From Heterodontus francisci (taxonomy: Eukaryota): a stretch of 64,000 nucleotides of DNA. The translations under genes were made by a program, and so were the position numbers. Under the pieces are notes generated by a model that ran no database searches, was not told the DNA's origin, and saw nothing but the letters and a program-made list of their open reading frames with translations. The stretch lies in NCBI RefSeq assembly GCF_036365525.1, contig NC_090412.1, positions 7,110,123-7,174,122 of the forward strand, read 5' to 3'. Each line of letters starts with the position of its first letter. Positions within the stretch are counted from its first letter, which is position 1. This document shows positions 20,201 to 63,437 of the stretch, one piece after another.

Positions 20201-23200
20201 GGACTAATTCCTTCACCTCCTCCTGCCTTCAGGCATCAGGTCAGGCTGCAGGATCTGTTTCCCACATTCCCTCCACCTGCAATCTCAAAAACAACTTGCA
20301 TTGAAAAAGCACCTTTAATATAGTAAAACATTCCAGGGCGCTTCACAGAAGAATTAGACAAAATCTGAAACTGAGTCACAGAAGCAGTTATTCCAGCAGG
20401 CGACAAAAACCTTGGTCAATGAGGTAGGTTTTAAGAAGCATCTTAAAAGTAGAAAGAGGTAGAGGGGTGGAGAGGTTTAGCGAGGGAATTCCGGAGTTTA
20501 GGACCCAGACAACTGAAGTTACATCTGCTAACGGTGACATTGGAGATGTACAACAGGTTAGAATTGGAGGAATGCGGAGGCTTTGGAGAGTTGTAGGGCT
20601 GGCGAAGATTACAAGAGTGAGTGAGTGGATTGGTCAAAAAATAGGGTCTTAAAGGAGAAGGAGGTGGCGAGGCAGACGAGTTTAAAGGAGAGAATTCAAA
20701 TCATGCGGCCTAATGGGATGATGGGAGGAGGGAAAAGCACAAGAGGCCAGAGGCAGAGAAATAGAGATTTTGTAAAGAGGGTTGCGGGGCCAGTAGAGGT
20801 TACAGTGGAAGGAGCGAGGCCATGAAGAGATTTAAACATGAGGACAAGGATTTTAAGTGGAGGGTTTGGGGGCAGGGGTCCAGAACTAAATAATCGACCC
20901 AGATTTAAAACAACTTGCAAACGTTGGAAATCTAAAATAAAAATGTAAACTTGCAGTAGGCCCATTAGCATCTATGAAGAGAAAAGACAGGTTAAAGTAA
21001 CTACTTCCCCAAGTTACACTAATACTTTATTTTTGTGTAACCTTAGCAGCAGGAATCTTTTAAGCTCCCCAGTATGGAGGATTAATGGAAGCATGCAATC
21101 CAGGATTCCTGAAAGCGTTACTGTAAAACCTATCACGAGTGCGACTAACTAGCAGCTCATCGTACTGTATGCACAAACCTTTTTTGTTGAATAATAAGTC
21201 TTTCTTTCTAAAACAAAGCCCCGATTTGTTCCTGGCTTAAGTCAGCCCTGTTGTGATCATTCCAGCTATAAAGGGAGGGGATATCAATCTTTTAGCAGTG
21301 CTGTTACTGTAACATGTTGTACCAAAGAGTGTCCCAGTGCATTAACGTGCACAGGGTCCCTGTGTGTTGATACTTGAATAGGGTACCTGGGACAGTGTCA
21401 ATATTTTTAGGTGGTTCTTCAAACAGAAGAGTTTGGAAAAACATGGATACAAAGCCAACTATTGCATACCCACTGTGCTAACTTTATTATAGTCAGAACA
21501 CACCAATGGTATTATCTGTGGATTAGTATTGCTCTGAGTTTAACTTTATTCTGTCATTTTCATGGGAAATTGCACACATTGTGACCATACATCTTAGTCC
21601 CACCGGTCAGAATGTGACTGTAGCACGGCAGATCCAAACTGACCCACTCCAGATTGAAGAAAAAGGGGATCTCTTTGAAGTCACAGGGCATTTTCAAGCA
21701 TTTAATGACATCTAGTGGTGACTAAATCAGACCACTTGCTATGGGGCGGACAGACACACATTGAGAGCCCTGGTTCCAAATATTTGTGACTCCACACGTC
21801 CACTTGTGGAATGTAGCACTTCTGCATAAAGCTACTGTAGGGAATCTGAATGGGTGCACAAGATTAAAGCTTGGGCTGACAGCAGCAAGGATTCAGAGTT
21901 ACTTTGCTGAAAATGGGAGATGCAGATGAATCAAATTTCAGAAATCTGCAGCACAGCCAGCACCTGTGCTATGGGATACTTGTTTAAAGCTTTCTTGCCT
22001 TGGTGGTTGGAGCAGAACAGGGGAGGGGAGAAGAGAACTGTCAGAAGACTGCCTAAGAGTGCTTTGCTGACTGAAATATTGAATAATTTCTCCCCCTCCA
22101 GACACGCACACAAATTTAATTATTTTGAGGAGCAGAGTACACTTTGCTTTCAAACCATTCTTTTCACTGCAATACTTCCCTCATAAATAAACTCCAGTGA
22201 TAAATCTCTATTGGAACACTGCAGCAATCTGAGTAACATCTTTCAGATCAGAACAGCAGGAGCAGAATGGTGAAAACTGACTGGGGCATTACTCACTTGA
22301 TGAAGTCCTCCTTACATTTCTGCAGCAGTTCACAGGCTTTTGTAATCTCTTGCTCATTAAGCAGGATGAGTGTTCCAATCGTCAGGTGGAGCTTTGCTGG
22401 ATTCTGGAAAATACTGCTGTCAATCCCACGGTCCTAAAAGAGAAGAGGTATAAACAGCTGAATTTTCACATTGTTCCATCCCTCTGGGCAATGTTACAAA
22501 CTAGCAAGGAGGAGGGACTGAAGTCCATTACCTGGAGAATAGCAGGTATCTAGATATCACTCCAAAGCAGAAAGCTGCTCAAAGTTTCAGATGATGTTAC
22601 AAATGGCAGGAGTCAGGCTGATCTATAATTATCTGAAATAAAAACTAATTTCAGAGCATGACGGGCCCCCATTCTACTTTTAGTTACTTTTTTCTTTTTT
22701 GTGTTTATTTTATTTTAGTTTGTTCAGTTTGTCTCTACTGTGCCTACCCACTGTTTTTCACATTTGTGCTTGTGGCTGTTCAGTTTTCAGTCCATTAACA
22801 CCCTATCTGTACTAATGCTTTGTCTTTCAGCACACCATTAACATATTGTTTGCCTTTGCTCCATGACCTTCTGGTCGGTTATTCTGTGACCTTGTCCTAT
22901 CTACACCTTCTCTTTTGTTATCTCTTGCCCCACCCCTGCTTTACTTGCTTACAATCTTTTACATTTCTTATATCTGCCAGTTCTGAAGGGTCACTGACCT
23001 GAAACGATAACTCTGCTCCTCTCTCCACAGATGCTGCCAGATCTGCTGAGTATTTCCAGCGTTTCTCGTTTGTATTTCAGATTTCCAGTATCCGCAGTAT
23101 TTTGCTTTTACTATAATTATCTGTAATGTTTACTGCAATCACACCCCTGTCCCACATTACAACAGTGACTACACTGCAAAAGTACTTCATTGGCTGTAAA

Positions 23201-26200
23201 GTGCTCTGGGATGTTCTGACATGAAAGGCACTATATAGATGCAAGTCTTTCTTTCTAGAATGCTCCTAGGTATCAATTACTAATTACACTGTAGAACTCG
23301 CGGACTGACTTAATTCAGTTCCGAGTTCTTTACCTGCCTACAGCAGTGCCCAGTATTAATACTGATGGTTAATTGGCTTTATGGTAATTGTGAAGTAATC
23401 AATTGACTAAGAAAAATTAATTTGTCGTCAATTATCCAGAAATAATTGTGTCAGGAAGCATTAGAAACTTTCTATCATGCTAACAAGAAATGCTGGAAAT
23501 ACTTGGCAGGTCTGGCAGCATCTGTGGAGAAAAGCAGAGTTAACGATTCAGGTCCTGAAATATTAACTCTGCTTCTCTCTCCACAGATGCTCCCGGACCT
23601 GCTGAGTATTTCCAGCAATTCTTGTTTTTATTTCAGATTTCCAGCATCCGCAGTATTTTGCTTTTATTCTATCATACTAGTTGCCCACCCATAATGTTGC
23701 TCATGAGCAGTACAAGGCCTTGAGTATTGATTATAAAGCTTTTTGTGGCAGCAACAGCAACAGAGCAGAACATACTGAGGCAACCCTCCAGGAAGTTTGC
23801 CACTGTTGCACTCCCAATGACCAGGTCCTTAAGCAGATGGTTATTTGTTAGAGTCCAGGCCTGGCTGACTACGAGCACAATGTATGAATTAAAACCGGAA
23901 ATGTCACATCTGATTTCCTCATTTAATGTGACAAACCACAGACAAAAAAAAGACGGGCAAAAGAGAGGCTGGGGGAAGAAAATGAGGAGTTGCCAAGGGA
24001 GAACAGATGACACAGAAGGGAGAGGCAGAGGGAGAGGCAGTGAGAAAAAGAAAAGGCAAGCGAGAGCCTGTATGTCAATCTTTAGAGTGCAAATTAAAAC
24101 AGAGAATCCATTCCCAAAACAGCGATGTTTCCAAAGTTAGGTCTCCTTCCTCACTTAGTAAATACGTTGCAATTACTTTGCCACCTGATCCCAATAACCA
24201 CCTTAAATCAATGGTTCACAAATGTTTCTGTCTAAGGAACTCTGAAATATTGGCACACTACCAACTTAATTTCTGAAAGATGGTTTCAGCTACCTAGATT
24301 AAAACAGCGTTCACACTGCTTCTTCTTCTTCTTTGGCCTCCTTGTCTCGAAAGACTATGGGTAAGCGCCTGGAGGTGGTCAATGGTTTGTGAAGCAGCGC
24401 CTGGAGTGGCTATAAAGGCCAATTCTAGAGTGACAGGCTCTTCCACAGGTGCTGCAGATAAAATTGGCTGTCGGGGCTGTTACACAGTTGGCTCTCTCCT
24501 TGCGCCTCTGTCTTTTTTCCTGCCAACTGCTAAGTCTCTTCAACTCGCCACGCTTTAGCCCCGCCTTTATGGTTAAAACAGTGTTCACACTGCAGAAACA
24601 CATTTATTCAACAGAAATGTCAAAAAACTCAAAATCCTGATGAGATGGGTGAAAGTCCAACCCTCTCAACCCCTCTGGGATCCTCTTAGCAACCCACTGA
24701 GGATCCAGGAACTCCAGTTTGCCCTAGATGCTGCTCACACCTCCAAAGTGCCCTAGTTTCTCTACATATTTATTAATACAGGTTTACAGTTGTAATTAGA
24801 ATGCTTGCACAAGGAGCACCAGTATGAAATGGGACTTCAAGCTACGTAGCAGTGATCATTTTAGTCAGCACAACGTAAGCTCCAGACTTCTTGTAATTTT
24901 GAATTGCACATCATGTCAGTGGAATGGCCTCAGGGTAGGTCCAGATCAATTTTACATGCTGTAGCAGAGTTTGAAGTGCTTGCTTCATAAAGATTACATT
25001 CCTTCAAAGCAATCAAATTGGTTCATTGCCTGATTTAATTAGCAGCATTGTTCTTTTGATCAAAAAAAAACCTTTGATTGTTATAATGAGATGCATATTT
25101 GATGCAGACATGCAAAGTGCTCATATATTTCTGATATTCTTTAATATATTTACATCATTATCTATTGTTAATTGGATATACCAGCAAATTGCCCATGGTG
25201 TGGCTTACAAGTAGCCTGGAATATGGCTGTGACATTTAACTAGTAACCTGGCCCATCCTTTAAGGCCACTGCCCTAGTACGCCTCATGCCTAAATTTGCT
25301 AATGCAACAGTTTCCAAAATACTTGGGTCGGAGTGTAGTTGTTACCCGCGTCTAAGTGCCATGCGCCAGGTCAGTGAATGGCTTTCTTTCTAATCACAAG
25401 AGTTCTTTTGAACTGGATGCAAGTCTTCAGATAGGGACGTCACATCAGATGTGAAAGAACATTTGAGAGGATTAAAAAGGAACTGAAATTGTTGTACTGA
25501 ATGTTCCTTTGTATTTAACACAACATCTTGAAGGCAAAGGGTAACCAATGCATTGCAGATTTTCTTACTGTGTATGGAATTTTATTTACTGCGCTTTTGG
25601 TATTTGCCAATTATTTGCATTGTTTATGCTCAACAGGGTAGATGCTGAGAGGCTGTTGCCAGAACTAGGGGTGTGGGGGGGCGTGAGGTGCTGAGGGCAG
25701 TCTCAGGATAAGGGGTTGACCATTTTGGACTGAAATGAGGAGAAATTTCTTCACTCAGAGTTGTGAATCTTTGGAATTCTCTACCACATGGGGTTGTGGA
25801 TGCTCAGTCATTGGTTGAGGTTGATGAATTTTGGGACACTAAGGAGAATTAAGGGGTATGGGGATTGGGCGGGAAAGAAGAGTTGAGGTAGATGATTGGC
25901 CGTGATCATACTGACTGACACAGCAGGCTCGAGGAGCCAAAATGGCCTACTCCTGCTCCGATTGCTTACGTTTTTATGCGAAAATAAAAATAAGTTGCTT
26001 TAAGTCTGTAAACCTGATGATTATTCTGGTAATAATTGTCACTTCAAAGAGATTCAGGCAGCATAGTGCGACGCATGTTAAATCCAGTCAACATTTTGTT
26101 AACGATTAAGTTGCTCTTTAGCCTGTCAGGTATGCGCCTCTGCAAGAGCAGAATATAGTAAATATCTACCGGTAGCAGAAAATGGACTCTCATCAAATCA

Positions 26201-29200
26201 GAAGGCCATTTTACAAAGATCATACGCAGAGTAAAACGGGCAGCTGATCCTACTAGTGTACATCAATTCAACCTTTGGATTGTAGCAAAGACATAACGTA
26301 ACAATTGCAATCTCATCCTGGTTTTATGGAGCTACTTTCCCCCCACTCCATTCTCTGAAATAGTATCCATTCTGCAATGAAAGCAAAATACTGCAGATAC
26401 TGGAAATCTGAAATAAAAACAGAAAGTGCTGGAAATACACAAGAGGTCTGTCAGCATCTGTGGTGAGAGATACAGAGTTAACGTTTCAGGTCTGTGACCT
26501 TTCATTAGAAAGGTTTTTATTCCATTCTATAATAGTTTTGCACACAGTTATCATGGGAACATTTGAGAGTTATTAAATTCAAATTTTGAAGTGTAAATAT
26601 TCGAATAGGTTCACCTGCTCCATACTTGTTCAGCCCTGATCTTGTAGTTAGATTCAAGCACTCAGCTTGCAGCCAGAAACTGACACAATGGCAGCCCATT
26701 CAAATTCCAGTTCACCATAGTACTTTTGGTCAAAGTTATTTGAAAACAGGTTCTCACCAGCTGTACAAAAATACACTGGCCAATCAATACTTCATTCATT
26801 CGCCAGGTCTTCTAGTGACACCAGCATCCAAAACTGTGATACAGCAGTTCCAGCTTCTGCAGATGTTTCCTCTATGCAGGTTTGATTTCTAATTCACTCC
26901 TCAACTTCAGCAAGTGGAAAGTGTTCTCATTTGTATTGAGCCTAATTTTTCCCAGGTCTGAACGCTAACGTCAACAGCTACAGCCCTTAGACATCATCCA
27001 TTTCCCTGGCCATTTCTCCTGTCCCAACTTAAACATCAACCCACTTCATTTGAGTGGTTATCTTTCCTTTAGTTCCTGTAATGCCTTTACGCTGTCTAAA
27101 GAGCTTTTCACCTCCAACGTTTTAAGCAACAGGTTTGTAGGTTACTCAAATGTTTAACTCTCAGGCGTTAGCTGCAGCTCAGTTGGCAACACTCTCACGA
27201 GTTCAAAGGTCATGGGTTCAAACCCCATTCCCAAGACTGGAGCACAAAATCCAGGCTGGCATTTCAGTGCAGCACCGAGGGAGTAACTTCCGATGAGCTG
27301 TTCAGCCAAAGCCCCATCTTCCCTCTCTCAGGTGGATGTAAAAGATTTTGTGGCACCATTCTGAAGAGCAGGGGTGTTCTCCCCAGAGTTCTGGCCAAAT
27401 TTATCCCTCAACTAGCATTGCAACAGTGACTACACTTCAAAAGTACTTCATTGGCTGCGAAGCACCGTGAGATCGTGAAAAGTGCTATAACACTGCAAGT
27501 TCCTCTTAAAATACTTTCAGCAATCTGGTATTCAAAGGGGGTGCCAAGAAGAACACCTGCGTCTTGAAGACACTTGCCTGCTTCAAGCCCACACCCTTTC
27601 CTATCCCCAGGTTGTCAACTCGCCCATGTACCCCAGACCACAGGTACTGCAATGCCTTGTCCCCAGCCTTGGTAATGTACCTGGGAGCACTCTTCCAACA
27701 CCCGCTCTTTAAACTTCACAAACTGTTCCTGAATCGTGAGGTGATTAATGGCAAAGGACAGGAAATGAGTGAAGGGCTGCTTCCTGCGGAAACTCTCTAA
27801 CATCACCTCGATCCGGGTTTGTGCTGATGCCACACCCGCTCGCTGCTGCCCAGTGATGACTGAAAACAAGAAACACTGATGGTTAGAATGAGTTTCTCCT
27901 TTTTGCACCATGAAGCACTTTCTGCCACAGCACAGTGCTCTCTCTGCATGACATCAAGCATCCCAACTCTAACCTCAAGTGCAGTGACTGCAGTTGTATG
28001 GCCTGTGCATTTTCCAACGGATAGCCCAATTTGACCCCAACAGCACTCACTACAAAACTTGCATTGAAAATCTCACTACAGGCAATGAGATAAATGACCC
28101 TTTTGTTTTGGTATTAGCTGAGTGGGGAATGGTGATCAGCACCAAAGGAAGTCCCTGTTCTTCAAATAGTGCCACAGGATCATCAACATCTCTTCAAACC
28201 ACCAGACCAAGCAGGCAAGGCCTTGGTTTAACATCACATCTGAAGGGAAAGGCAATCTCCACCAAAGCAGCATTCCTTCAGTATTGCACTGGAGCAGAGA
28301 CTATGTGCTTAAGTCCTGGGGAATGAATTAACATTACAGGGATGAAGTAGTCTTGGACAATATGTTTTACCTTCACAGTGATATTCACACCCATAGCTCA
28401 CAATATAAGTGGACTGTGGATCAGAAATAGTATTTGTGAACCCCTACCATTGTTGGCAAGGTCAGTATGTATTGCCCATTCCCAATTGCCCTCGAGAAAG
28501 TGGTGGTGAGCTCTTTCTTGAACCACTGCAGTCCAAGTGGTGAAGGTACACCAACAGCACTGTTAGGTAGGAGGTACATCGTTCGCTGTAGAATACTCAA
28601 TCTCCAACTTACTCTTGCAGCCACAGTATTTGTGTAGCTGATCCAATTAGTTTCTGGTCAATGGTGACCCCCAAGGATGTTTATGGCGGAAGATTTGACA
28701 ATGGTAATGCCATTTAATGACAAGAGGAGGTGGTCAGACTTTCTCTTGTTGGAGTTGGCCATTTCCTGGGACTTGTGTGGCACAAATGTTACTTGCTACT
28801 TGTCAGCCAAAGCCCGAAAGTTGTCCAGGTCTTGCTGCATGCAGGTACAGACTGCTTGGTAATGAGTGTTTACAAATAGAAAATACACTTTTACAACTTA
28901 ACAAGCATTTCATGTACTAAGAAAACATTCCCACTGAACTCCTCCTGATGCTCACCAATCTCTCCCTCCATTCCAAGTTTCGGGATGGTTATGGACGTTC
29001 GTGTCTCAGTCTCCAGTCTCCGTTTGGTCTCCCCTTTTTTTCCGATTACGTATCTGTGGGGAAAAAAAAGTATGTTTTCATCACACAGAACGTATCTCAT
29101 GGTCAGATGATGGCACCCTTGCCCCTGGAAAGAATGAAAGTGCCAAAAATTTGAACCAGATCTAATTTTGAAGATGTTAATCCTCAGACAGGACGGATAC

Positions 29201-32200
29201 CTACAGTTTACCTTTCAGGAAGACACACATTAACCACTTATGATGGATTTTACTGGGTGAACAGACCTCACTTTAAAAATGTAAGCAATTATAGGCTCAG
29301 TCAAGGAAAAGCTTTTCCCCTTTACAAAGCTGCACCACTTCCATTGAAGAGAAGAATTAACTGACACCAACCTGTTACTTGTCTATAATTGAAAGGGGCT
29401 GATGTTTACCCACTGCTGAAATGCAAAGCGGTCGTGGTCATCTCTCCAATCCAATATTGAATTTATATCAATAAATCCCTAAACATTAACTATAAACTTG
29501 GGAAGGATCAGTTTCCAGTGTCTCGTGCAAGCCAATAGATCACTCAGCATTTCAGGTGGCGAGAGTAAGGACCTGTTGGACGAAATGGCTTTTTCAAAAA
29601 ATGTTTTTTGTCTTTGTTTGTTTATGGGCAGCATGGCCCCCTCTAGCTGGATGGTAACTGTTCTCCCTCTCATCTTGCCACATCCCCACCCCTGACATTG
29701 TTAGGATCACTGCAGGCCATCACACCATCGCACTCTGGAATTCTCTTCCTGAACACCTCTGCCTTGCTATGCCACTGTCTGCCTTCAAACATCTCCACAA
29801 AATCTTGTCACCTCGAGGAATCATAGAAACTTACAGCACAGAAGGAGGCCATTCAGCCTGTGCTGGCTCTTGGAAAGAGTGGTTGTGCTTCATCCCTCAT
29901 CCCCACCTGTGTCTGCAACCCTTCAAGTTCCTCATCCTCAAGCACCTGTCCACCTTCCTTTTACAATAATTTGTAGAATCACCTTTTTCATGTAGAGTGT
30001 TCCAGATCACAATAACTCTGAGGGAAAACAACTCGCCTCATCACCCCTCTAGATATTTTGCCAATGATTTTGAATCTACAACCGCTGATTAATAACCTGC
30101 TCTTCAGAGGGAACAGCTTTTCTCTATCTACTCGAGTAAAACCTTTCATCTTAAAAACCTCTATTTGGTCACCTCTCAACCTTCTCTGTTCCATGGAGAA
30201 CAGTCTTAACTTTTCAAATCTCTCATCACTGAAATCTATCAACCCAGGTTAACATCCTGGTAAATCTCCTCTGTACCCTTTCTAAGGCCTTTACATCTTT
30301 CGCAAAGTGTGCAGCCTGGAGCTGTCCACAATACTCCAGCTGAGGTCTAACCAGTGATTTATAAGGATCTGGTATGATATCTTGCTTTAAAATATTATTC
30401 CTTTAAGCTGTCAACTCCTACTCTGTTCCAGTTCCACACCCACCATGCCCAGCCATAAAACAGCTTGGGGCATTTGAACACATTAAAAGGGTTTTTAAAG
30501 TGAAAGCTATTCTTATTGTATCTGTACTTTGCATAGTGCACAGTCATCTAGTGGCAAAACAGTAAACAAAGACAGCCCTGAACTGATCTCGGCTGAAAGC
30601 AATCTTTTGCTGCCAAGAACAGTTTCATTGCTCACGTGCAGGGTTAGTGACAACACGTTTTAGACCAGTTAGAAATTAATTACTAACATCCTTAAATCTG
30701 AAATAAAATCCAGTAGTGCATAAGTTCATTAGCGTGTGAAAGAGAAAATTAAATTGGATTTACATTTTGGGCAGAGACTTATCAGAACTCTTCCATTTGT
30801 ATAGCACCTCATCACACCTCGTGCATCAAAGCATGCCACATATATAAATGAATTACTTGGAAGTTCAGTGACATATTATGAAGGTAAATGCATCAGCTAT
30901 TTTGCACGCAAGATCAACAACTAATTAACCTGCTTTTGGTAGTGTTGGTTGAGTGTGGAATGTTGGCCAGGACACTAGAGCAACTCCCTGCTCTAAGTCA
31001 AACAGTCCCTTGGGATCTTTAAAGTCCACCTGTATCACCAGGACAGGTAAGCAAGGGGCATGGTTTAGCCTCAGACAAACAGAAACATGCTCATAAAATC
31101 ACCAACAGTAATAACTCACTTGTAAAGAGCACTGGGCACAGGCATGGCACATCGATAGCCTCGGTCTGTCTGCTCTATTAGTACAGAGTCACAAGGCTCA
31201 TCCATACAATCTACAACTCCTGCAGAAAAAATGATGATAAATCAGCTACGGCAGTATTGAATCTCTGAGCTCCAATTCACAATTGGAGAACGTCGGCACC
31301 GGACCACATATGAATCCAAAGCAGGTCGGCTAAAAGTTAGGCAAGGAACTGTAAGTGGTGGTTGTTCAATCTTCTGTACAATGTGAAATATTAATCACAA
31401 AATGCAAAATAAAAAGAGTTGATTTTAACTCAGCATTTCGTCGTTCCATTGAACAATTTGATCGCAACATGTTGCCAATGAACGGAATCATTTTCCTGTC
31501 ATTGTTTAACCCATGTTTCTATTCTCCATGTAGGGAATTATAAAAAGAATATATTGGAAAATTCTTACACTACACTGCACCAATTTTCAGCCCGTTCAAG
31601 ACACTGGCAATATAGAAACTTTAATTACTTTGTCTCTAATGTTTTAATTTGGACAAAGTTAAGTTCCTCTGTTCATAAAATTGGGGCGGCACAGTGGCGC
31701 AGTGGTTAGCACCGCAGCCTCACAGCCCCAGGGACCCGGGTTCGATTCCGGGTACTGCCTGTGTGGAGTTTGCAAGTTCTCCCTGTGTCTGCGTGGGTTT
31801 TCTCCGGGTGCTCCGGTTTCCTCCCACAAGCCAAAAGACTTGCAGGTTGATAGGTAAATTGGCCATTATAAATTGTCACTAGTATAGGTAGGTGGTAGGG
31901 AAATATAGGGACAGGTGGGGATGTTTGGTAGGAATATGGAATTAGTGTTCTTCTTTTGGGCCTCCTTATCTCGAGAGACAATGGATACGCGCCTGGAGGT
32001 GGTCAGTGGTTTGTGAAGCAGCGCCTGGAGTGGCTATAAAGGCCAATTCTGGAGTGACAGGCTCTTCCACAGGTGCTGCAGAGAAATTTGTTTGTTGGGG
32101 CTGTTGCACAGTTGGCTCTCCCCTTGCGCCTCTGTCTTTTTTCCTGCCAACTACTAAGTCTCTTCGACTCGCCACAATTTAGCCCTGTCTTTATGGCTGC

Positions 32201-35200
32201 TCGCCAGCTCTGGCGAATGCTGGCAACTGACTCCCACGACTTGTGATCAATGTCACACGATTTCATGTCGCGTTTGCAGACGTCTTTATAACGGAGACAT
32301 GGACGGCCGGTGGGTCTGATACCAGTGGCGAGCTCGCTGTACAATGTGTCTTTGGGGATCCTGCCATCTTCCATGCGGCTCACATGGCCAAGCCATCTCA
32401 AGCGCCGCTGACTCAGTAGTGTGTATAAGCTGGGGGTGTTGGCCGCTTCAAGGACTTCTGTGTTGGAGATATAGTCCTGCCACCTGATGCCAAGTATTCT
32501 CCGAAGGCAGCGAAGATGGAATGAATTGAGACGTCGCTCTTGGCTGGCATACGTTGTCCAGGCCTCGCTGCCGTAGAGCAAGGTACTGAGGACACAGGCC
32601 TGATACACTCGGACTTTTGTGTTCCGTGTCAGTGCGCCATTTTCCCACACTCTCTTGGCCAGTCTGGACATAGCAGTGGAAGCCTTACCCATGCGCTTGT
32701 TGATTTCTGCATCTAGAGACAGGTTACTGGTGATAGTTGAGCCTAGGTAGGTGAACTCTTGAACCACTTCCAGAGCGTGGTCGCCAATATTGATGGATGG
32801 AGCATTTCTGACATCCTGCCCCATGATGTTCGTTTTCTTGAGGCTGATGGTTAGGCCAAATTCATTGCAGGCAGACGCAAACCTGTCGATGAGACTCTGC
32901 AGGCATTCTTCAGTGTGAGATGTTAAAGCAGCATCGTCAGCAAAGAGGAGTTCTCTGATGAGGACTTTCCGTACTTTGGACTTCGCTCTTAGACGGGCAA
33001 GGTTGAACAACCTGCCCCCTGATCTTGTGTGGAGGAAAATTCCTTCTTCAGAGGATTTGAACGCATGTGAAAGCAGCAGGGAGAAGAAAATCCCAAAAAG
33101 TGTGGGTGCGAGAACACAGCCCTGTTTCACACCACTCAGGATAGGAAAGGGCTCTGATGAGGAGCCACCATGTTGAATTGTGCCTTTCATATTGTCATGG
33201 AATGAGGTGATGATACTTAGTAGCTTTGGTGGACATCCGATCTTTTCTAGTAGTCTGAAGAGACCACGTCTGCTGACGAGGTCAAAGGCTTTGGTGAGAT
33301 CAATGAAAGCAATGTAGAGGGGCATCTGTTGTTCACGGCATTTCTCCTGTATCTGACGAAGGGAGAACAGCATGTCAATAGTCGATCTCTCTGCACGAAA
33401 GCCACACTGTGCCTCAGGGTAGACGCGCTCGGCCAGCTTCTGGAGCCTGTTCAGAGCGACTCGAGCAAAGACTTTCCCCACTATGCTGAGCAGGGAGATT
33501 CCACGGTAGTTGTTGCAGTCACCGCGGTCACCTTTGTTTTTATAGAGGGTGATGATGTTGGCATCGCGCATGTCCTGGGGTACTGCTCCCTCGTCCCAGC
33601 ACAGGCATAGCAGTTCATGTAGTGCTGAGAGTATAGCAGGCTTGGCACTCTTAATTATTTCAGGGGTAATGCTGTCCTTCCCAGGGGCTTTTCCGCTGGC
33701 TAGGGAATCAATGGCATCACTGAGTTCCGATTTGGTTGGCTGTATGTCCAGCTCATCCATGACTGGTAGAGGCTGGGCTGCATTGAGGGCAGTCTCAGTG
33801 ACAGCATTCTCCCTGGAGTACAGTTCTAGGTAGTGCTCAACCCAGCGGTCCATCTGTTTGCGTTGGTCAGTGATTATGTCCCCCGATTTAGATTTGAGGG
33901 GGGTGATCTTCTTGATGGTTGGCCCAAGAGCTCTCTTCATGCCATCATACATTCCTCTGATGTTTCCGGTGTCTGAGGCCAGCTGAATATGACTGCATAG
34001 GTGTTGCCAGTAGTCGTTTGCGCAACGCCTAGCTGTTCTTTGTGCAGTACTTCTGGCTGCTTTAAGTGCTGCGGATGTTAAATCGCTGGGGGCTTTCTTG
34101 TAGTTCAAAAGTGCAATGCGCTTAGCGGCTATGACAGGTTCCAGCTCTTCATTATGAGATTGAAACCAGTCTGCATTTCTCTTCGCACTTTTGCCGTAGG
34201 TGGTCAAAGCTGACTCATAGATGGCGTCTCTGATGTGGGCCCACTTGGTCTCAGCATCCCCTGTGGGAATGTTTTGAAGGGCTGTTACAAGTGAATTTAG
34301 AAATTTTTGTAACAGCTGTGGGTGAGAAATTCTGCTCGTGTTGATGCGCGGGTGGCCCTTCTGCTTGGAATGATGCAACTTCTTTGGTCTGAGTCTAACC
34401 TTGCTGCACACCAGGGAGTGGTCGGTGTCGCAGTCCGCACTGTGGAAGCTGCGTGTGATTTGAACACTGTTTAAGGCGGCTCGCCTTGTGACAATGAGGT
34501 CTAGCTGGTGCCAACGACGTGATCTTGGGTGCCTCCATGAAACCTGGTGACAGGGTTTAGTGTGAAAGAACGAGTTGGTGATGCAGAGGTTATGATAGGT
34601 ACACAACTCAAGCAGTCTCTGCCCGTTCTCATTCATCCTTCCAACGCCATAGCGCCCAAGGCAGGAGGGCCATGAGTCATGGTCGGCCCCAACCCTGGCA
34701 TTAAAGTCCCCCAGCAGGAATAGGTGTTCGGTGTTGGGGATGCTGCTAATGATGTTATGGAGTTGTTCATAGAACTGGTCTTTAGCTTCAGGTGCGGAGC
34801 AGAGTGTTGGAGCATAGATGCTGAGTAGGTGTACTGGACCAGAGGTGGTGAGCAGTCGGATGGACAGTATGCGTTCCGAGCCATTTGAGGGAGGCTCTAT
34901 CATGCTGAGCAAGGAGTTTCTGATGGCGAAGCCCACTCCATGCTGTCTTGGTTCTTCAGGATCCCTGCCCTGCCAGAAGAAGGTGTAGTCTTGCTCTGCT
35001 AGAGAGCCACTCGCGGGGAGGCGAGTCTCCTGAAGTGCTGCAATGTCCACATTGAATCTACTGAGCTCGTTGTTAATGATGGCGGTCTTCCGAGAATCGT
35101 TGATTTGTGTAAGGTCTTCCGACAGGCCAGGACACATAGTTCTGACGTTCCAGCTTGCAAAGCGAAGGGCTGGTACCTTCTTTCCTTTTTTCATGTTGTT

Positions 35201-38200
35201 TGGTGCGGTGTATCAGTCCACCTTTCGAGCAATGACCCTGAGTTCCAAGCACCCATTGAAGCAGGCAGACTGTGGCGGGACAGAATCTTATTGACCGGGG
35301 GCTGCCCGGTTTGAGGCGGGCGGTAGCTGTCCAGTGAGGTGCAATGACCTCTCCCACCGACAAAGGCAACCCGTGGCGCCCAGTTTCTACGCCAATTTAT
35401 CTGGACTTATAACCCGTAACTGCTGCCTTCCGTGTTGTTTTAGTCGCTGTGAGGCAACTATGGAGTGACCTCTCCATGGCGCATGCCTGGGCAAATTTAT
35501 GGAGGTTGAGAGTTGCCCAGTCGTCAAAACCCCCCTCTCGGCCTTTCTGGTGGGGTCCAAAGGAGTGCAGGACACGACGTTTGGCACCAGTATGGCTGCA
35601 GGAACTGCCGGAAACATGCCAAAGGTGACACATGACCGCCTACGGGGTTCCGCTCCGGATTTTCTGTTAGGGTTTACTCCCTTAGCCTTGGTCTCTCCCG
35701 AGACGCCCACAAGGCAGTGGGGTTGTTGGGGCCCCTACACAGGTGTAGGATGGTGCCAGTGGGAGGAGGGGATGCAAGGGGGAGGGGTAGAGGGAGGGGG
35801 TGGGGGGGGGGTGCAGGGGAAGGGGGTGCGGGGTGAAGATGGTGCGAGGGGGGGGCGGGCTGGGACGGGGTTGTGAGGGGGTGAGCTGAGAGGGTGGAGC
35901 AGGGAAGGGGACGGGGGTGGGGGGGGTGGAAGGGGGGTCAAGGGGGGGGGGAGGGGGGGTGGAATCTGGTGCAGGTAATAAGCCATTTCCTCAGTGCCCA
36001 CCATCGACGTCCGGAAAGCTCATCCACGTCCTTCGGGAGGTGAAGCATCATTTGGCAGACTTAGAGGTGATTACATTTGCTAAGGGTTTTTTTTTTTTGC
36101 AGTGGTTTAAATAAAGGCATGCAGCATTGCCGACAGTGCGCTGCAGATGCTCTCCGAGCCATCTCCCGCGGGCGCTTTGAAGTTGCGGCCGGGGGGGCCA
36201 TTCGTGGATGTTTTGGGTGTTCGGGGCACCTTTTCACAGGACTTCTCTCGGGTCCCGCAGCTCCTTCTTCACCTCAATGGACTTACCGCATGCCGTGGCT
36301 GCAGACACTCTGGACTGTGAAGACAGCAGGATCGGAGATTAAAGTATCGGCAGCTGTGCTCGTCAGTTTCATCCGGATCAATTTCATTGAGAAAACAAAG
36401 AGCAGGTGTGGCTGGGGGAGGGCAGTGGGCCCAGGTAACATACACTAAAACTAACTGTTAACTTTTAGATAGGGCTAAAATGAACTGATTTAAAGAGCCA
36501 GGGGAATTTAAACAGTTTAAGAGGGCAGATTGGGGGAGAAAACGTTAGGGATGGGAGCAGATGGCCATGGAGGGAGTTGAACAGCAAGGGAGCTTCCTAG
36601 GGAGCTTCCAGCCCAGGAGCCATCTTGGGGATGTTTGGTAGGAATATGGAATTAGTGTAGGATTAGTATAAATGGGTGGTTGATGTTCGGCACAGACTCG
36701 GTGGGCCGAAGGGCCTGTTTCAGTGCTGTATCTCTAATCAAATCTAATCAAAATCATGCAAGCTTTTCCACTGCAGAGCCTCAGGAAGCATATGCAATGG
36801 ACTGAATTTTACTGTCACTCTGGGGATCACTTAAAGCCTATGCAGGAGGCAGCACTTGTACAGCAGGATGAGAATCTGTGCTCAGCAGAAATCCCTAGCC
36901 TGCAGTGTCTAGTTAGCGAGATTGCTATATTATAGACAGGAGATGACAAAATGGTTCAAACAGATCTGCGGAAATGACAAACATCACACATGCAGCTCCC
37001 GACACTGTATAAATCAGGTTACAATCTGTGCTCTGCAACAGTGTCTCAGGTTCCAGGAAGTGATCAGATTTCTCTGTCTGTAGGCAGGCTCATTGCCACT
37101 GGAAATGTCTCAAGAATTTCGTATTGTTTTTGTATTTGTTGATTTGCTAGCTCATTATTTCTGTTGTATAGTACCTAAAAATCTTCTCTGCTATAGCAGA
37201 GATTGGTTTTCACTGGGTCCTCAGGAGTGTACCATTTGCAGGGGGATCCCCAGAAGTGTGCCAGTATTTGCAGGGGGTTCCCAAGAATGCCATATTTGCA
37301 GGGAGCACTTCAGACTGAAAATGTACAAACTACTTGTGTAAATAAAGAAATGAATGAAAGGAAGTGGTGACTTACACTAAATAATCCATTGCACTCAAAG
37401 TGTCAATATTGTGCAAATAGAGAATGATTAATTCCCCTTTCTATGGCTTGCTTTCCTTCCATCTTCCTCCTTTTATAGAGGTGGCAAGGAAAAACTAACA
37501 TATCACGAAATTTTATCTACACTGGTTGCTCAATGTAGCTAAATGTGAGGCACATCAAATTCCCAGATCAGGCTTCCTCTCAACTATTGCAACAGTTCTG
37601 GTTGCTGTGATTTAAGAGGGTCAATCAAACCCTAAAGGCAGTGCAGAGGCGAGCATCAGGGCACAGGGTGAAGCTTTGAGGAACAAATGCATAAGCTTAG
37701 GTTCTCGAACCTTGAAAATGTCTCAAAGGACCAGACAGACATTTTCAAGATACTGAGCAGGATTGGAAGCGACAACGCAAAACATTACTCTCGTACATTA
37801 GGAGTATGAGGTCACACAGGCTCAGAGCTGCAGAGTTTCAGAGAGACATTAGGAATTATTTCTTTACACAGAAGGGTGATAACAGCTGAAGCAGGTGGCC
37901 AGCAAAAATGGATTGAGGCCAGAATATTGGACTTATTTAAGAAACAGCTAGACATTGCAACGGGAAGACGAAAAATGAGCTTCTTCATCTGAAACTATAA
38001 TTAGACTTCCAGGCATTATTCGTCTCAATTATGAATATAAACAACAGGACTTCAATATGATAACATACTTTTTAAATTCACTGGAAAAAAAGCACCAGTA
38101 TTTTTACCTGGCAATGTTTACAGGTGGAATTACAGTGTGCTTGCAAGTACCTGAGTAAGTAAAGTCTTCCTCTTCCTCATTGAGATATACCTGCTCTTTG

Positions 38201-39190: not shown

Positions 39191-39203
39191 NNNNNNNNNN
39201 NNN
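39191..39203. other. Assembly gap (13 N)
   Basis: Run of n characters. Confidence 0.99.
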
Positions 39204-45200: not shown

Positions 45201-46710
45201 TCTTTCCCTCCCCCCCCGTCTTTCCCTCCCCCCCCGTCTTTCCCTCCCCCCCCGTCTTTCCCTCCCCCCCCGTCTTTCCCTCCCCCCCCGTCTTTCCCTC
45301 CCCCCCCGTCTTTCCCTCCCCCCCCGTCTTTCCCTCCCCCCCCCGTCTTTCCCTCCCCCCCCCGTCTTTCCCTCCCCCCCCGTCTTTCCCTCCCCCCCCC
45401 GTCTTTCCCTCCCCCCCCGTCTTTCCCTCCCCCCCCCGTCTTTCCCTGCCCCCCCCGTCTTTCCCTGCCCCCCCCGTCTTTCCCTGCCCCCCCCGTCTTT
45501 CCCTGCCCCCCCCGTCTTTCCCTGCCCCCCCCCGTCTTTCCCTGCCCCCCCCGTCTTTCCCTGCCCCCCCCCGTCTTTCCCTGCCCCCCCCCGTCTTTCC
45601 CTGCCCCCCCCCGTCTTTCCCTGCCCCCCCCCGTCTTTCCCTGCCCCCCCCCGTCTTTCCCTGCCCCCCCCCGTCTTTCCCTGCCCCCCCCCGTCTTTCC
45701 CTGCCCCCCCCCGTCTTTCCCTGCCCCCCCCCGTCTTTCCCTGCCCCCCCCCGTCTTTCCCTGCCCCCCCCCGTCTTTCCCTGCCCCCCCCCGTCTTTCC
45801 CTGCCCCCCCCCGTCTTTCCCTGCCCCCCCCCGTCTTTCCCTGCCCCCCCCCGTCTTTCCCTGCCCCCCCCCGTCTTTCCCTGCCCCCCCCCGTCTTTCC
45901 CTGCCCCCCCCCGTCTTTCCCTGCCCCCCCCCCGTCTTTCCCTGCCCCCCCCCGTCTTTCCCTGCCCCCCCCCGTCTTTCCCTGCCCCCCCCCGTCTTTC
46001 CCTGCCCCCCCCCGTCTTTCCCTGCCCCCCCCCGTCTTTCCCTGCCCCCCCCCGTCTTTCCCTGCCCCCCCCCGTCTTTCCCTGCCCCCCCCCGTCTTTC
46101 CCTGCCCCCCCCCGTCTTTCCCTGCCCCCCCCGTCTTTCCCTGCCCCCCCCCGTCTTTCCCTGCCCCCCCCCGTCTTTCCCTGCCCCCCCCCGTCTTTCC
46201 CTGCCCCCCCCCGTCTTTCCCTGCCCCCCCCCGTCTTTCCCTGCCCCCCCCCGTCTTTCCCTGCCCCCCCCGTCTTTCCCTGCCCCCCCCCGTCTTTCCC
46301 TGCCCCCCCCCGTCTTTCCCTGCCCCCCCCCGTCTTTCCCTGCCCCCCCCCGTCTTTCCCTGCCCCCCCCCGTCTTTCCCTGCCCCCCCCCGTCTTTCCC
46401 CCCCCCGTCTTTCCCCCCCCCCGTCTTTCCCCCCCCCCGTCTTTCCCCCCCCCCGTCTTTCCCCCCCCCCGTCTTTCCCCCCCCCCCCCGTCTTTCCCCC
46501 CCCCGTCTTTCCCCCCCCGTCTTTCCCCCCCCCGTCTTTCCCCCCCCCGTCTTTCCCCCCCCCGTCTTTCCCCCCCCCGTCTTTCCCCCCCCCGTCTTTC
46601 CCCCCCCCGTCTTTCCCCCCCCCGTCTTTCCCCCCCCCGTCTTTCCCCCCCCGTCTTTCCCCCCCCGTCTTTCCCCCCCCCGTCTTTCCCCCCCCCCCGT
46701 CTTTTTCCCC
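39204..46710. repeat. 7.5 kb C-rich polypyrimidine tandem repeat (units ~14-21 bp, core C(n)G[T/G]CTTT)
   Basis: Plus strand essentially lacks A; near-perfect 19-mer (~44400-45430) and 20-mer ccgtctttccctgccccccc (~45440-46390) blocks; more irregular toward the gap. Confidence 0.97.
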
Positions 46711-48028: not shown

Positions 48029-48034
48029 AATAAA
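48029..48034 (+). terminator. Probable ANAPC16 polyadenylation signal
   Basis: AATAAA about 230 nt after the stop codon. Confidence 0.6.
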
Positions 48035-49009: not shown

Positions 49010-49712
49010 AAACAGGTTTTGGAGTTTATTGTATAACTGTAATAGTTATACTGTTAGCAATAAACTTGCAATTGACAATATGCTCAGGCCCGAACCACAA
49101 GGAATCATTTAATTTGAGTTTAAAGAAATTTCCTTACAGGTTCAAGAGGCTGAATGGTCTACTCCTGTTCCTCTGTAATGCACTCTGAGCCAGAGAACAT
49201 GGTGCTCTAAGACATTTCCCAAGTGGATTCCAAATCTTCAATTAGGTGACAGATGTGGGCAACTAAATGCAAAGACATGGGTATTTGTCATAGTACCGAT
49301 TTATTTCTATTGAAGAGCAAAATAAGTTACAACTGATTTCAGCCCCTGCATTAAGTACAATGTATATACAACTATAAATAATTTCCAAATCATTAATTCA
49401 ACACATCTGTTGATTTGCTCCATTAGAAGTGACTAGTGCACATGTACAAACTTGGTTCATGCGTAGTCATGTCTCTCCTGCTTTGCACTGTGCCGGTCTC
49501 CTACCCAATCGAGTGTTTCGCAGTCTGCACGGCAAGGTGCTGTCCAGGAGACCTTAGGCCTCTTTAATCCAGTTAATCAAAAAAGTCCAGTGGTGGGGTT
49601 GTTCATAGGTTGTGAGTATTTTCAGCAGTGTTGCTGGCTAATCAAAATCCAGTCTTAAGACAAATTTTAAGGGTCTTTTTTTAAGTCATCGTCGTCTCCA
49701 TTGCTATACCAT
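49010..49712 (-). other. DNAJB12: Probable non-coding terminal exon (3'UTR) of DNAJB12
   Basis: Strong acceptor ttccctctttatcttcag| ending at 49713; minus-strand AATAAA at 49300-49305 and 49025-49030; the 3' end is approximate. Confidence 0.65.
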
Positions 49713-50098
49713 CTGAAGATAAAGAGGGAAACAGTAGGAATAATCAAGTAATTTGAAAGAGTAATAGAAATTGTTTGACAAAAGCAAGTTAAATATATTG
49801 TTTATATGAATTAAAAGAAGTTTCAGTTCCTCCCACAAAATGTCTTTGTTGAAGGTGGCTCTCTCTCATTCTACCAATTCTTCACGTAATCCTGTAGTCC
49901 AACTCCAGGATTTGAGCACACAAAACAAAATCAAGGCTGACACTCTAGTGCAGTACTGAGAGAGTACTGCACTCTCTTGGATGAGATGTTCAACCGAGGC
50001 CCCGTCTGCCATGATCCCATGACACTATTCAGGCGGGGAGTTATCCCTGATGTCCTGGCCAATATTTATTCCTCAATCAACATCACAGAAACAGATGA

Positions 50099-50232
50099 AT
50101 AAAAGCAAAATACTGTAGATGCTGGAAATCTGAAATACAAACAAGAAATGCTGGAAATACTCAGCAGGTCTGGCAGCATCTGTGGAGAGAGAAGCAGAGT
50201 TAACGTTTCAGGTCAGTGACCCTTCATCAGAA
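50099..50232 (-). mobile_element. Short Penelope-derived insert inside a DeuSINE
   Basis: 10-bp duplication aaacagatga at 50089-50098 and 50245-50254; same family as 26379-26510, 52048-52172, 63336-63437. Confidence 0.8.
50198..50232 (-). ncRNA. Minimal type I hammerhead ribozyme (PLE-type), catalytic core intact
   Basis: Minus strand UU-CUGAUGA-A-GGGUC-ACU-GACCU-GAAA-CGUU-AACU: conserved core, 5-bp stem II, palindromic ACGU stem III; only 2 bp of stem I remain. Confidence 0.75.
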
Positions 50233-50872
50233 TATTATAGACCAAAACAGATGATCTGGTTATTATCACAGTGCTGTTTGTGGGAGCTTGCTGTGCACAA
50301 ACTGGCGTCACGTTTCCTACATTACAACAGTGACTACACTTCAAGAGTACTTCACTGGCTGTAAAGCACTTTGAGATGTCCACTGGTCGTGCAAAGCGCT
50401 ATATAAATACAAGTCTTTTAATCAGGGACAGAAGTGGTGCTAAGTCTAACAACAGTTACAACATCCAGCGTTGTGATACAAAAATAAGCTGGCAAAGGGA
50501 ATATGATTAAAACCAAGGTGCTTTATGCATTCTGGGATCAGAATGCTGCCAAACTGTAGCTGGTTTATTACCCGTCGTACTCCTGTTAACAACTGGAGAT
50601 CCATGCAGCCTCAATCCTTGCCAAACTATGCCTAAATTCTCTGGATTTAGCTGTATGGTGTATATTTCTAGAGGGAGAGAGTGCACGCTCCATAGTGGGT
50701 GAACAGAAGCTACTTGTGCAATCTTAGCAGCTTTATTTGGAGGCTCTTCAACGTGCTAATGAGTTTCTGTTTCTGCCGGACACTCAACTGACCAAAAAAA
50801 AATGACAGTAAATGAATGTTGGTATCCACAGGACATACCTGGTCTTTGATTATTGATGTGGCAGACTCCGCT

Positions 50873-50994
50873 CTAACCATGCAGGGAAGCCTGAACTTCC
50901 GATAGCCTGGTACAGCTCGGTGTGCTCATTTTCTGGGCTCTCTGGTAGAGATCTACATCTCCAAAATAGCGGGCACGATACAACAACCCCTCTT
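50873..50994 (-). CDS. DNAJB12: DNAJB12 exon 8 (stop TAG at 50875-50873; exon continues as UTR to a donor after 50839)
   Basis: [40 protein letters not shown]; CAG|gtatgt donor 34 nt after the stop. Confidence 0.95.
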
Positions 50995-53900
50995 CTGTAA
51001 AGAGAAAATAAAAATGTTAGTGAGAATGTGCAATTTTGTACCACAAAACCCCCTGTGATTTTGCATCTCTGCCAACACAGACTTTATCAGCAGCAACTTG
51101 GTAGAACAGAATAAATATTTGTATTTGTACATCATGCTTTACAACATCTTAAAGTGCTACAATTAAATATTTTGACATACAGTGACTTATGTGGGCTAAC
51201 ATCAAAGCCATTTTAGATGCAGTAATCTCCCACAAATATGAAACAGATGACTGACCGATTAGTCTGTTTTTGGTGATGTTTACCATCCACCAAAAATCAC
51301 CAGAATGGTTAGATATAACCTTAATTTAACATCTCAACGATTCTGCAGTCCCTGGCATCGGCTGGAATACCATCACCATCAAGTTCCCAACCAAGTTACA
51401 AGCCATCCCAACTTATTCATGTATTGCTGTTCCTCATCATTGCTGGGTCAAATCCTGGAACTCTCAGCACTGTGGCGGTACCCTCACCACACGGAAAGCA
51501 GCAGTTCAAAAGGCAGGCTCACCACCACCACCCTTTCAAGGGCAACAAGGGATGGGAAATAAATGCTGTTCTCGTTATGCCCATATCCCAAGAAAGAATT
51601 TAAAAAACTAAGATTAAATTAACATTTTTCAAAATGATTACTGAGAATTGCCGGGTGAGTTACTGGGGTACACGGGATGCTTTTGTTTGTTACATGCAGC
51701 CACAGTTAGCCTGCATCTTCTGGACCTCACACTGCTTTCAGTTCGGCCGGGCCAGTTCATCACTCTATGTATCAAACAGTTCTATACACCCTCTCCCCAG
51801 CCCCTGCCATTACTCACTCTGTTGTTTCTCCTTCCAGCAGTTATTCCGCAAGTTTGCAATGAAATCCTCTTCAACATTCCGTTCCACCAGCTTCAAGTTC
51901 TGCCCCGTATATTCCGCCGCAAATTTATCCGCCACAAAATAATGCACCTTCAGTACATCCGTCGTCCGTCTGTGAATGTGACCAGTGGACCTGGGAACAA
52001 ACGACGGCTTAAGGTTAGAAAACTCTCACTACTGGTGCTGTTTATACAAAAGCAAAATACTGCAGGTGCTGGAAATCTAAGATAAAAACAAAATGCTGGA
52101 AATACTCAGGTCTGGCAGCATCTGTGGAGAGAGGAACAGAGTTAATGTTTCAAGTCGATGACCTTTCATCAGTGCTATGTAAAGTTCACACCACCCAAGT
52201 ATTCTACTTTACACTGCAAATTAAAACAAATTTTTTTTTTGTCATGTCCCACATGACACTTTGGGTACTTGAAGTGATGTATACACTGAGATAAAGGTGG
52301 TGGTACGCAGGTTATCCCTCCTTCTTAATCGTCGCTGCTTAGTACCTCACTGGTGACTATAACATCGGTGTGGGCATGAGCTCCCATCCTACTGCTATTT
52401 GATGGAATACCCCACTAGTACGTTGCACACTTATGTATAAAACTAGAAATTAAGGTCACTCTTTGGGGTTGAAGGGAGTTGGGAGAGGGAAGGTGTCTTA
52501 TACCTGAGTCATTGTACTGAATGTTACTATAGCTTACACTGGAGAGCACACTTACTCCTGATTTAGTCTTACCCTCCTGTCTATTCTGGACTGGCCAACA
52601 CTACTCACCCTCCACTCCTTTCTCTCCCTTCTTGGTCTCCTGCTTGTGCTACTTTTTTTGCATATTCCAACACTCTTCTCATTGGCCTCCCAACCTCCTT
52701 AAATGCCAACCTGTCCAAAATTCGGATGCCTGTATCCTGTTCTGCACTGCCCCCTGCTGGTGTACTGTCGCTGATGTCCCGTCTCCCACACTTAACAACT
52801 TCAGCCATGTCCGCAAATCTCTCCAGATTCTCAATCTAACCTGACTTGGCAGAGCCTTCACCAGCCTCAGCCATCTCCCTGGAAGTCCCTCCCCAATTCC
52901 CTCAACCCTCTCTCTTACTCCACCTTTCAAATCCTCCTAAAAACATATCTTTCAACCAAGCTTCATGGATTGGCCCTTACCTGTGAAGTGCCTTGGGACT
53001 TTGTTTTATATTAATGGTGCCTTATAAATGCAACTTGTCGGATAGACTCAGTGACACACTTAGCAGGGGGAGGAGGAAGGGAAAAGACCCTTTCTTACAT
53101 AATTTCAGGGTATGCGATGACCCTAAAAATCCCTAATTCCATGTAACTGCTTGAAATCAATGCTTGTACAAAACACACACTACCTGCCTGGAGCCAAAGA
53201 ATACAGTGCCTGCGAAGACACTGCCACCTGCCTACTCTTCAACTCTAGTGGACAAATCAGCCTGGAAAGGTCTCTGCGACCTGCCAGATCAAATTACTTT
53301 AACTCTATTTTCAGTTTAACTGATACTTTTAAGATAAACCTGCTCACTTTATTAGATTGTTCAAGCTAAGGAAGCAACCCGATGTTCTCCATGACAGTGG
53401 ATGATCAATGAGATTTTAACCAATAACGAATGCATGGTATGAACTCAGGGTTTTACTTACGGCCTGTAGCTCAGACTGTAGGGAGGGCTTGACACCATCA
53501 TTTGACTGATCACAGAGACAAGAACCAGGATCAAAATTGGCATCAACTGTACAAAGAGTGCCAACCCACCCTGCCAAAAAAAGGAATCCAATAAATCACA
53601 CACACAGACCAGTAATGCTTGAATGGTATAAATGTTACACACATATAAACAACTAGTTAAACGTAGCAATAGTTTTAGTGAGTTTGTCTAGCCAACCTAT
53701 CCACATTATTCCCCTGGCGCATTTCTAATAATCCTGAATCCATTTGTTGACAAGAACCTGTCTAATTCCTTCTTGAAACCCATTATTTTTTTTAATTAAT
53801 TCTCATAAATGCTCTCAGAGTTGAGGAGAAATTTTTTCACCCAGAAAATGGTGAGGACCAGGAACTTAATACCTAGAACAGTAGTAGAGACAGAAACCCT

Positions 53901-62934: not shown

Positions 62935-63335
62935 CTGGGAAGAGGAAAACAAAAATGGCGCTAGGCAGAAGACACAGTCCAAAAGCACGGTAGAGAGGCT
63001 GACGACAGATTATTTCATGGGCACCGAATAATAATTTATTTATGTTAGCTCAAAACAGAAGGAGGAAGAATTTTCTCCTATTATTCTCCTACTATTTTCT
63101 CCCGTTATTTGCCCAACCCCCCACCTGAATTACCATTCCTAAACACAAATTCTGGAATCTGTTCCCACACCTCTGGTAAGAAACACATGACAATCAACTT
63201 CAAGATACTCAGATCATTATTCCCATGTAATCTTGTGAGACTATCTCTTGTGTGTGGGCGGACAGACCCTGAGAAGTTTCCCTTGAGATTGAACCATTAG
63301 GTACAATCTATGTTGAGGTAAAGACCTCAACACAA

Positions 63336-63437
63336 TCTGGTGAAAGGTCATCAACCAGAAACGTTATCTCTGGTTTTCTCTCCATAGATGCTGCCTGACC
63401 TCCTGAGTATTTCCAGTATTTTCTGTTTTTATTTCAT
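63336..63437 (+). mobile_element. Short Penelope-derived insert with degenerate hammerhead
   Basis: U-CUGGUGA-A-AGGUC-AUC-AACCA-GAAA-CGUUA plus the shared tail. Confidence 0.7.

Follow-up and report, generated by a model that had tools for sequence, protein, structure and literature searches.

A recurrent 5' edge at the hammerhead of short Penelope-like inserts in Heterodontus francisci, probably set by a transcription start

The 64,000-nt stretch of Heterodontus francisci DNA analysed here (GCF_036365525.1, contig NC_090412.1, positions 7,110,123 to 7,174,122; hereafter the window) carries dispersed repeats of little more than 100 bp that begin at the core of a minimal hammerhead ribozyme, and it raises the question of why separate inserts should share a 5' edge that is not the site of self-cleavage. 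We found these repeats to be the final 100–136 nt, the terminal repeat, of an autonomous and recently active Penelope-like element (PLE). A transcription start, which was not considered in an earlier reading of the window made from the letters alone (the sequence-only reading), is the best reading of the edge: it is probably a capped start at the A of a YCAGTT motif, with reverse transcription beginning internally, 136 nt downstream, on uncut RNA and running off the RNA end. The repeats bear on how PLEs copy themselves and on the role of their hammerhead. Element positions are counted back from the last base of the tail (−1), so that C3 of the hammerhead is −132, the first stem I base (the A of AGUU) is −136, and the predicted hammerhead cut falls between −104 and −103. 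Genome-wide counts refer to the 6.0-Gb assembly (2,306 contigs), and short copies that begin at the edge are referred to as stubs. The copies and signals of the window are as follows.

22646..23110, + strand: 5'-truncated Penelope-like copy of 465 bp, with 3' untranslated region (UTR), terminal repeat with hammerhead, and tail
22623..22639, + strand: left target-site duplication of the 465-bp copy, 17 bp with 1 mismatch (partner at 23111–23127)
22949..22954, + strand: TATA-like position of putative function, 30–25 nt upstream of the putative start, degenerate here (TTACAA)
22977..22982, + strand: initiator-like YCAGTT, the A of which (22979) is element position −136, the first stem I base and putative transcription start
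22979..23012, + strand: minimal hammerhead, damaged (3-nt core deletion, stem III changed)
23478..23668, no single strand: head-to-head pair of stubs, one arm with and the other without the tail, joined within stem II
26377..26510, − strand: older-subfamily stub beginning 2 nt before C3, G5 changed, possible 8-bp target duplication
50099..50232, − strand: stub beginning 2 nt before C3, the sole window copy with intact core and stem III
52048..52172, − strand: older-subfamily stub beginning at C3, stem III changed
63336..63442, + strand: tail-less older-subfamily stub beginning 1 nt before C3, A6 changed
12050..12101, + strand: decayed terminal-repeat remnant from which the hammerhead is gone

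The five copies recognised in the sequence-only reading are present (83–94% identity to 50099–50232, E 7e-28 or better), and the window sequence bears out its observation that four short copies begin 0–2 nt upstream of C3; the head-to-head pair and the remnant at 12050–12101 had been missed. However, the core CUGANGA, which it considered common to all five, was recovered by pattern match in only two (50232 and 52172), the copies at 26510 and 63336 reading CUAAUGA and CUGGUGA, respectively. As stem III is also changed in the 52172 and 22979 copies, core and stem III are both intact in only one of the five. Likewise, the boundary is not about 25 nt upstream of the predicted cut, as had been proposed, but 29 nt (C3) or 33 nt (first stem I base) upstream. 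The window's own copies are mostly decayed. The 465-bp copy is 84% identical to the final 497 nt of a copy (L123) bearing an open reading frame (ORF). Target duplications accompany the head-to-head pair (13 bp, 23470–23482 and 23667–23679) and the stub at 50099–50232, which lacks half of the 5' strand of stem I (10 bp, 50089–50098 and 50245–50254, with 12 extra bases at the 5' junction), and none was found around the stub at 52048–52172. The 3' end of the stub at 63336–63442 lies near the inner of two start sites of reverse transcription proposed below.

The family is abundant, with 43,811 exact genomic copies of a 34-base piece of the tail and 54 matches of a profile search in 600 kb sampled at fixed positions. 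The sequence-only reading had called for an autonomous GIY-YIG partner, and this was located among the long copies, which extend upstream into a single ORF matching reverse transcriptase (RT) and GIY-YIG. The 916-aa frame is intact in four of 10 fetched long loci (L360, L361, L366 and L368). Since the long copies are continuous into this ORF and four of the 10 are intact, the stubs are terminal-repeat pieces of an autonomous element. The matches to RVT_1 (E 6e-6) and GIY-YIG (E 0.004) both narrowly miss the Pfam cut-offs, and no match to the ORF was obtained among the solved structures compared. The protein has a cysteine pair between GIY and YIG (VVYCIRCSQCGLLYIG in copy L122) and, between RT and endonuclease (EN), an extra, zinc-finger-like C-x4-C-x2-C linker (CNRRRCNTC), the mark of Neptune and Nematis given in the available passages of PMC8557442. 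Where units lie in tandem, ORF-side sequence follows the tail; the ATG is at +37, and the frame is closed by a stop codon at −505 of the next repeat. Pseudo-long terminal repeats (pseudo-LTRs) in partial tandem, inverted arms and an optional tail, as known for EN+ PLEs, were all observed. The Penelope origin and the minimal type I hammerhead that had been suggested are thus supported by the RT/GIY-YIG element and by the motif match.

The element resembles EN+ PLEs of the Neptune/Nematis type, as far as the passages of Craig et al. (2021; PMC8557442) describe them, in its single ORF with RT followed by GIY-YIG, its cysteine pair and its extra linker, and also in its partial tandems, inverted 5'-truncated arms, optional tail of 30–40 bp and hammerhead inside the terminal repeat. 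In those passages, however, 5' truncation is general and no pile-up of 5' ends appears, whereas here roughly half of the copies extending to the hammerhead stop at its first bases.

This pile-up was quantified on tail matches drawn from the first 90 of the 100 listed, four places being given over to wider extracts; 85 copies were oriented, one duplicate was dropped and three boundaries were corrected by hand. The edge is not a product of chance, since 30 of the 54 tail-anchored copies that reach −130 end within the 11 nt from −130 to −140, a density of 0.071 per nt as against 0.001–0.011 in the other bins to −600. The proportion was 22/42 when inverted copies were excluded. A search for the 20 bases from −134 gave 70,055 copies in the genome. 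The 24,505 with a non-template base at −149 were unrelated to the element upstream in 97 of 100 rows judged by eye, and the 45,550 with the template base in 16–19 of 100 rows. Thus, about 45% of the core copies lose homology between −149 and −134, versus 4% expected at the background rate.

A fine map was drawn from the non-template-base set (the first 30 listed rows, plus 40 of the remaining 70, those of inverted or long appearance being passed over), which gave 68 distinct loci, 55 of them with unique flanks. These 55 copies start at −134 (9), −135 (18), −136 (17), −137 (5) and −138 (6), and none starts at −139 to −148; the 5' ends of the stubs as a whole pile up at −138 to −131. Exact starts across the genome numbered 7,358 at −135 and 6,240 at −136 (non-C in front), compared with 696 at the control position −118, about half of them point mutants, so that this count is inflated by mutated long copies. 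The 839 exact starts at the predicted cut are inflated in the same way, most rows being mutated long copies, and true starts at the cut are rare. The earlier proposal of a non-random 5' boundary distinct from the self-cleaved end therefore holds at the scale of the genome. The same edge was found in 46 of 100 rows from older subfamilies with the AGGUC stem (22,989 copies), and copies with an intact ORF also begin there (the 3,425-bp L361 at −134 and L360 at −135). Contigs of a second organism show it as well: in 24 of them, the flanks are unrelated up to the base before A−136, with G as the consensus last flank base.

A minor second cluster of 5' ends was noted at −79 to −84 (L031, L037, L058, L060 and L129), behind a strong acceptor-like pyrimidine run and CAG; three of these five (L031, L058 and L060) are inversion junctions. 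In the intact-ORF copy L360 (region L360:2446-2550, oriented 3861-3862), the 3' UTR jumps from −375 to −136, a deletion that ends exactly at the putative start base, and in L145 there is a comparable jump from ORF sequence to −135.

The sequence around the edge has features of a promoter. A−136 lies inside YCAGTT, and GYCAGTT is kept in 41 of 46 long copies; TTATAA (27/46) or TTAAAA (7/46) is found some 29–30 nt upstream of A−136. We take these motifs to be initiator-like and TATA-like, at canonical spacing. In front of A−136, 3,383 copies have G and 2,857 have A or T. After removal of element-derived flanks (8-mers), by script (17/30 and 16/28 loci unique) and by eye (64 and 54 of 100 rows), the share of G was 0.54 (0.43–0.65) to 0.58 (0.53–0.64), versus 0.30 expected from the flanks. 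In front of G−135, which served as an internal control, it was 0.35 (0.29–0.42) versus 0.34 expected, with no excess. For LINE-1 and SVA, an untemplated G is accepted as evidence of a capped template (PMC4859970, available text). A capped start at A−136 with run-off of internally primed reverse transcription is therefore the probable origin of the edge.

Several points weigh against this interpretation. A lone extra G was present in only one of 10 duplication-resolved starts at −136, a set enriched for G by sampling; in three others the extra bases are longer and end in G, and in a further three the G belongs to the duplication. More copies start at −135 than at −136 or any other position, with some starts at −137 or −138. 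The correction for G is based on by-eye counts of 100 rows per search and on 28–30 loci, and the start itself is deduced from genomic copies, as assembled contigs of presumed RNA runs cannot show RNA 5' ends. RNA-type contigs from four runs of one sample gave no usable start or splice evidence, their depth simply mirroring copy number; two further runs contributed just 7 and 6 contigs, and those of another run matched mainly downstream of the edge. The bases at the edge also resemble a splice acceptor (branch-like CTAAY, then YAG), and Drosophila virilis Penelope has the end of an intron, not a start site, at helix I according to the parts of PMC4209133 that treat it, its start site being placed about 120 nt before the intron end and hammerhead in the corresponding parts of PMC2377424. 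Finally, a second-pass stop at the edge was seen in only three of 15 long copies, versus 30 of 54 in the first pass (p 0.02), and some templates therefore do not begin at the edge.

With a capped start at A−136, copying could proceed as follows. RNA polymerase II would begin at the A of YCAGTT, the first hammerhead base, and the element protein would nick the target DNA and prime reverse transcription inside the RNA, either at the tail end or some 34 nt short of it. If the RNA is uncut, the RT would reach the 5' cap after at most ~136 nt and would often copy it as an extra G. The run-off complementary DNA (cDNA) might then be joined to the target, giving a single stub, or, by a putative twin priming, to a second cDNA for which the opposite target strand had served as primer, giving a head-to-head pair. 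About half of the cDNAs would continue into the 3' UTR, by a jump to the other end of the RNA or on longer or circular templates. The hammerhead would be a passenger in the run-off step, and the stubs would presumably be dead-end products of the autonomous element.

The junctions agree with several of these steps. Internal priming predicts a short run-on into the ORF side, and 13 of 81 copies continue for 5–8 bases into ORF-side sequence behind the tail, three more being true tandems. An inverted arm is present in 31 of 84 copies; 23 of these 31 arms are tail-less, breaking off 30–44 nt before the end of the tail, and 18 of the 31 end at −128 to −140. For the Poseidon element PAc of the anole, internal priming in vitro at two sites bounding the tail, with uncut RNA used, extension of both target strands and a requirement for ORF-side sequence downstream are described in the available text of Frangieh et al. 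(2024; PMC11167929). The element studied here is probably similar in having two internal priming sites that bound the tail and in using both strands and uncut RNA, and it shares the lack of ends at the ribozyme cut. However, the ORF of PAc starts in stem II and includes the tail, whereas the ATG is here 37 nt after the tail, and the RNA 5' end and short run-off inserts, which are central here, are not treated for PAc in that text. Priming near the RNA 5' end in vitro leaves the copying of the ORF unexplained.

In LTR retroelements, minus-strand strong-stop DNA is primed near the RNA 5' end, the short run-off cDNA must jump, and two terminal repeats arise from one template. We tentatively consider a similar scheme at the target site, in which the RT would copy the 136 nt from tail to cap and then jump to the RNA 3' end; this is possible, although it is well short of probable. 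Unlike in the LTR scheme, the primer would be nicked target DNA rather than a tRNA, so that failed jumps would be left in the genome, and the jump itself is only proposed. If this were the case, hammerhead cutting of the downstream repeat would make the terminal redundancy exactly the 33-nt hammerhead, partial tandems would be built up by successive jumps, and the stubs would be failed jumps, preserving tens of thousands of intermediates as fossils. Private variants occur in both repeats of the same element (L364–L367), as would be expected of a jump, a circle or a tandem template alike. The template switch at the ribozyme that had been suggested from the window survives in part: switches are found at the boundary, but presumably because the template ends at that point.

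The other suggestion made from the window was an RT stop at the ribozyme fold. More generally, the RNA may extend upstream, with the RT stalling, or the cDNA folding back or being cut, at the 5' foot of the hammerhead through structure, a bound protein or the element's own nuclease. We regard this as doubtful, despite the many junctions with fold-backs, short element-derived snippets and microhomology in stem II, and despite the exact coincidence of the edge with stem I. A fold blocks the RT at entry, which is the 3' foot near −100, where ends are rare (4/71 in −85 to −109). The hammerhead fold is also weak, no stronger than shuffles (z +0.28 for the intact copy). Moreover, stalling leaves unexplained why G is in excess at −136 only and why ends are nearly absent in the next 10 nt. 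A stop imposed by the fold itself is therefore unlikely, given a boundary at the far 5' foot of a weak fold and an excess of G in front of it.

The acceptor-like bases mentioned above could instead make the edge a 3' splice site, the stubs being derived from spliced or spliceosome-processed RNA. The CTAAY...YCAG just upstream is kept in all subfamilies, and the intron of D. virilis Penelope ends at the 5' end of helix I (PMC4209133, in the parts cited). However, the stubs have no shared first exon in front, and in 16 of the 28 cases that could be resolved the target duplication adjoins the stub or overlaps it. The G and the AG that splicing would remove are retained in 46 and 28 of 55 copies, respectively, and no joint at the edge was found among 15 of 25 joints listed for RNA-type contigs. 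This explanation is therefore improbable.

Still less credible is a separate, non-autonomous, ribozyme-headed element, similar to a short interspersed element (SINE) or a retrozyme and with master copies of its own, which was the discrete element envisaged in the sequence-only reading. The very high copy number, near-constant length and target duplications of the stubs are what such an element would show. However, 87 short and 46 long copies have equal frequencies at eight of nine variable sites (p above 0.3; ninth site p 0.019, uncorrected), and mean distances are 0.057 between short copies, 0.052 between long copies and 0.054 between the two, a likeness that already largely refutes the idea. 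No SINE-like lineage with private variants was apparent. Duplications of 8–14 bp flank 28 of 61 non-inverted edge copies, none being found in the other 33. These shared variants and target duplications, together with the intact 3.4-kb copy that starts at the same edge, argue that there is no separate mini-element. Neither the upstream TATA-like box nor the ORF-side sequence required by the anole protein downstream of the priming site (PMC11167929, available text) is present in the stubs. The stubs are similar to non-LTR retrozymes, as presented in part by Li et al. (2026; bioRxiv 10.64898/2026.07.22.740005), in that they are non-coding, carry a type I hammerhead and derive from PLE terminal repeats, but those retrozymes are tandem units with a ribozyme in each, whereas the stubs are dispersed, single or head-to-head, and form no lineage of their own. 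The window copies are likewise dispersed, and no tandem array of the unit was found.

Least likely of all is a 5' end made by ribozyme cutting in an alternative register, after the GUC preceding −136 in the youngest subfamily: GUC, a canonical cleavage triplet, stands before AGUU in 31 of 46 long copies and AGUU could self-pair through two G-U pairs, but older subfamilies with GCC or CCC there have the same edge, a 5'-hydroxyl end would give no excess of G, and the youngest subfamily has C at the conserved U4.

The 3' junctions of five copies (L127, L136, L178, L262 and L329) have short TAT repeats, as 1–7 extra bases between tail and target duplication, which suggests slippage at priming. At contig C1:287132063-287132147, three head-to-tail repeats of a 25-nt piece of the hammerhead 3' half resemble telomerase-style addition by template slippage.

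As for the ribozyme, the subfamilies reading CUGA (55/133 copies) have all the parts of a minimal type I hammerhead: core CUGANGA and GAAA, a 5-bp stem II, palindromic AACGUU, and stem I AGUU/AACU. CCGA is read by 74 of the 133 copies. This youngest subfamily (CCGAAGA in 69/133, CCGAUGA in 5/133) has C at hammerhead position 4 (element −131, e.g. L203:815), coupled with a G-C closing pair in stem II. It includes intact elements, and strong cleavage may therefore not be needed. The claim that stem II varies while staying paired stands as regards pairing (88% of 94 cells over 19 copies, versus 7–48% in slid controls), but covariation was not above that of shuffles, 251 of 500 being as high. An Rfam scan of the window (E up to 1) found no hammerhead, which is unsurprising for a motif without a stem III loop. 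The minimal hammerheads of metazoan PLEs, in the parts of Cervera and De la Pena (2014; PMC4209133) that deal with them, have a short helix I, an extra base between 9 and 10.1, a G10.1 pair and a palindromic 15.2–16.2. Our motifs share these traits and are mostly single, which is ascribed there to truncated elements. By contrast, the cut-ligate-circle model of that paper predicts ends at the cut or none, whereas they are here 33 nt upstream, and the C at position 4 of the youngest subfamily differs from the motifs described in it.

Earlier publications already describe the element class, the minimal hammerhead, the tail and the inverted arms. Our literature search, which covered subscription papers and supplements poorly, returned no report of 5' ends accumulating at the hammerhead's first base or of run-off stubs. 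This genome has more than 30,000 inserts stopping at one base, with a cap-like sign and with intact young elements alongside. If the edge is a capped start, these inserts fix a start site that can be tested and would make uncut linear RNA a main template; they also argue that a pure cut-and-circle model is insufficient.

The window has two further features. A 7.5-kb tandem array at 39215–46710 (unit of 15–18 bp, a C-run plus GTCTTT, ~438 copies) contains stop-free frames of ~2,500 codons on both strands and is most likely a G/C-skewed minisatellite. A non-LTR retrotransposon at 32006–35212 (− strand) has an open frame of 1,069 codons (endonuclease and RT), and a truncated second copy at 12641–13993 (+ strand) is 97% identical to it over 1.4 kb, as in a young family of long interspersed elements, presumably RTE-like.

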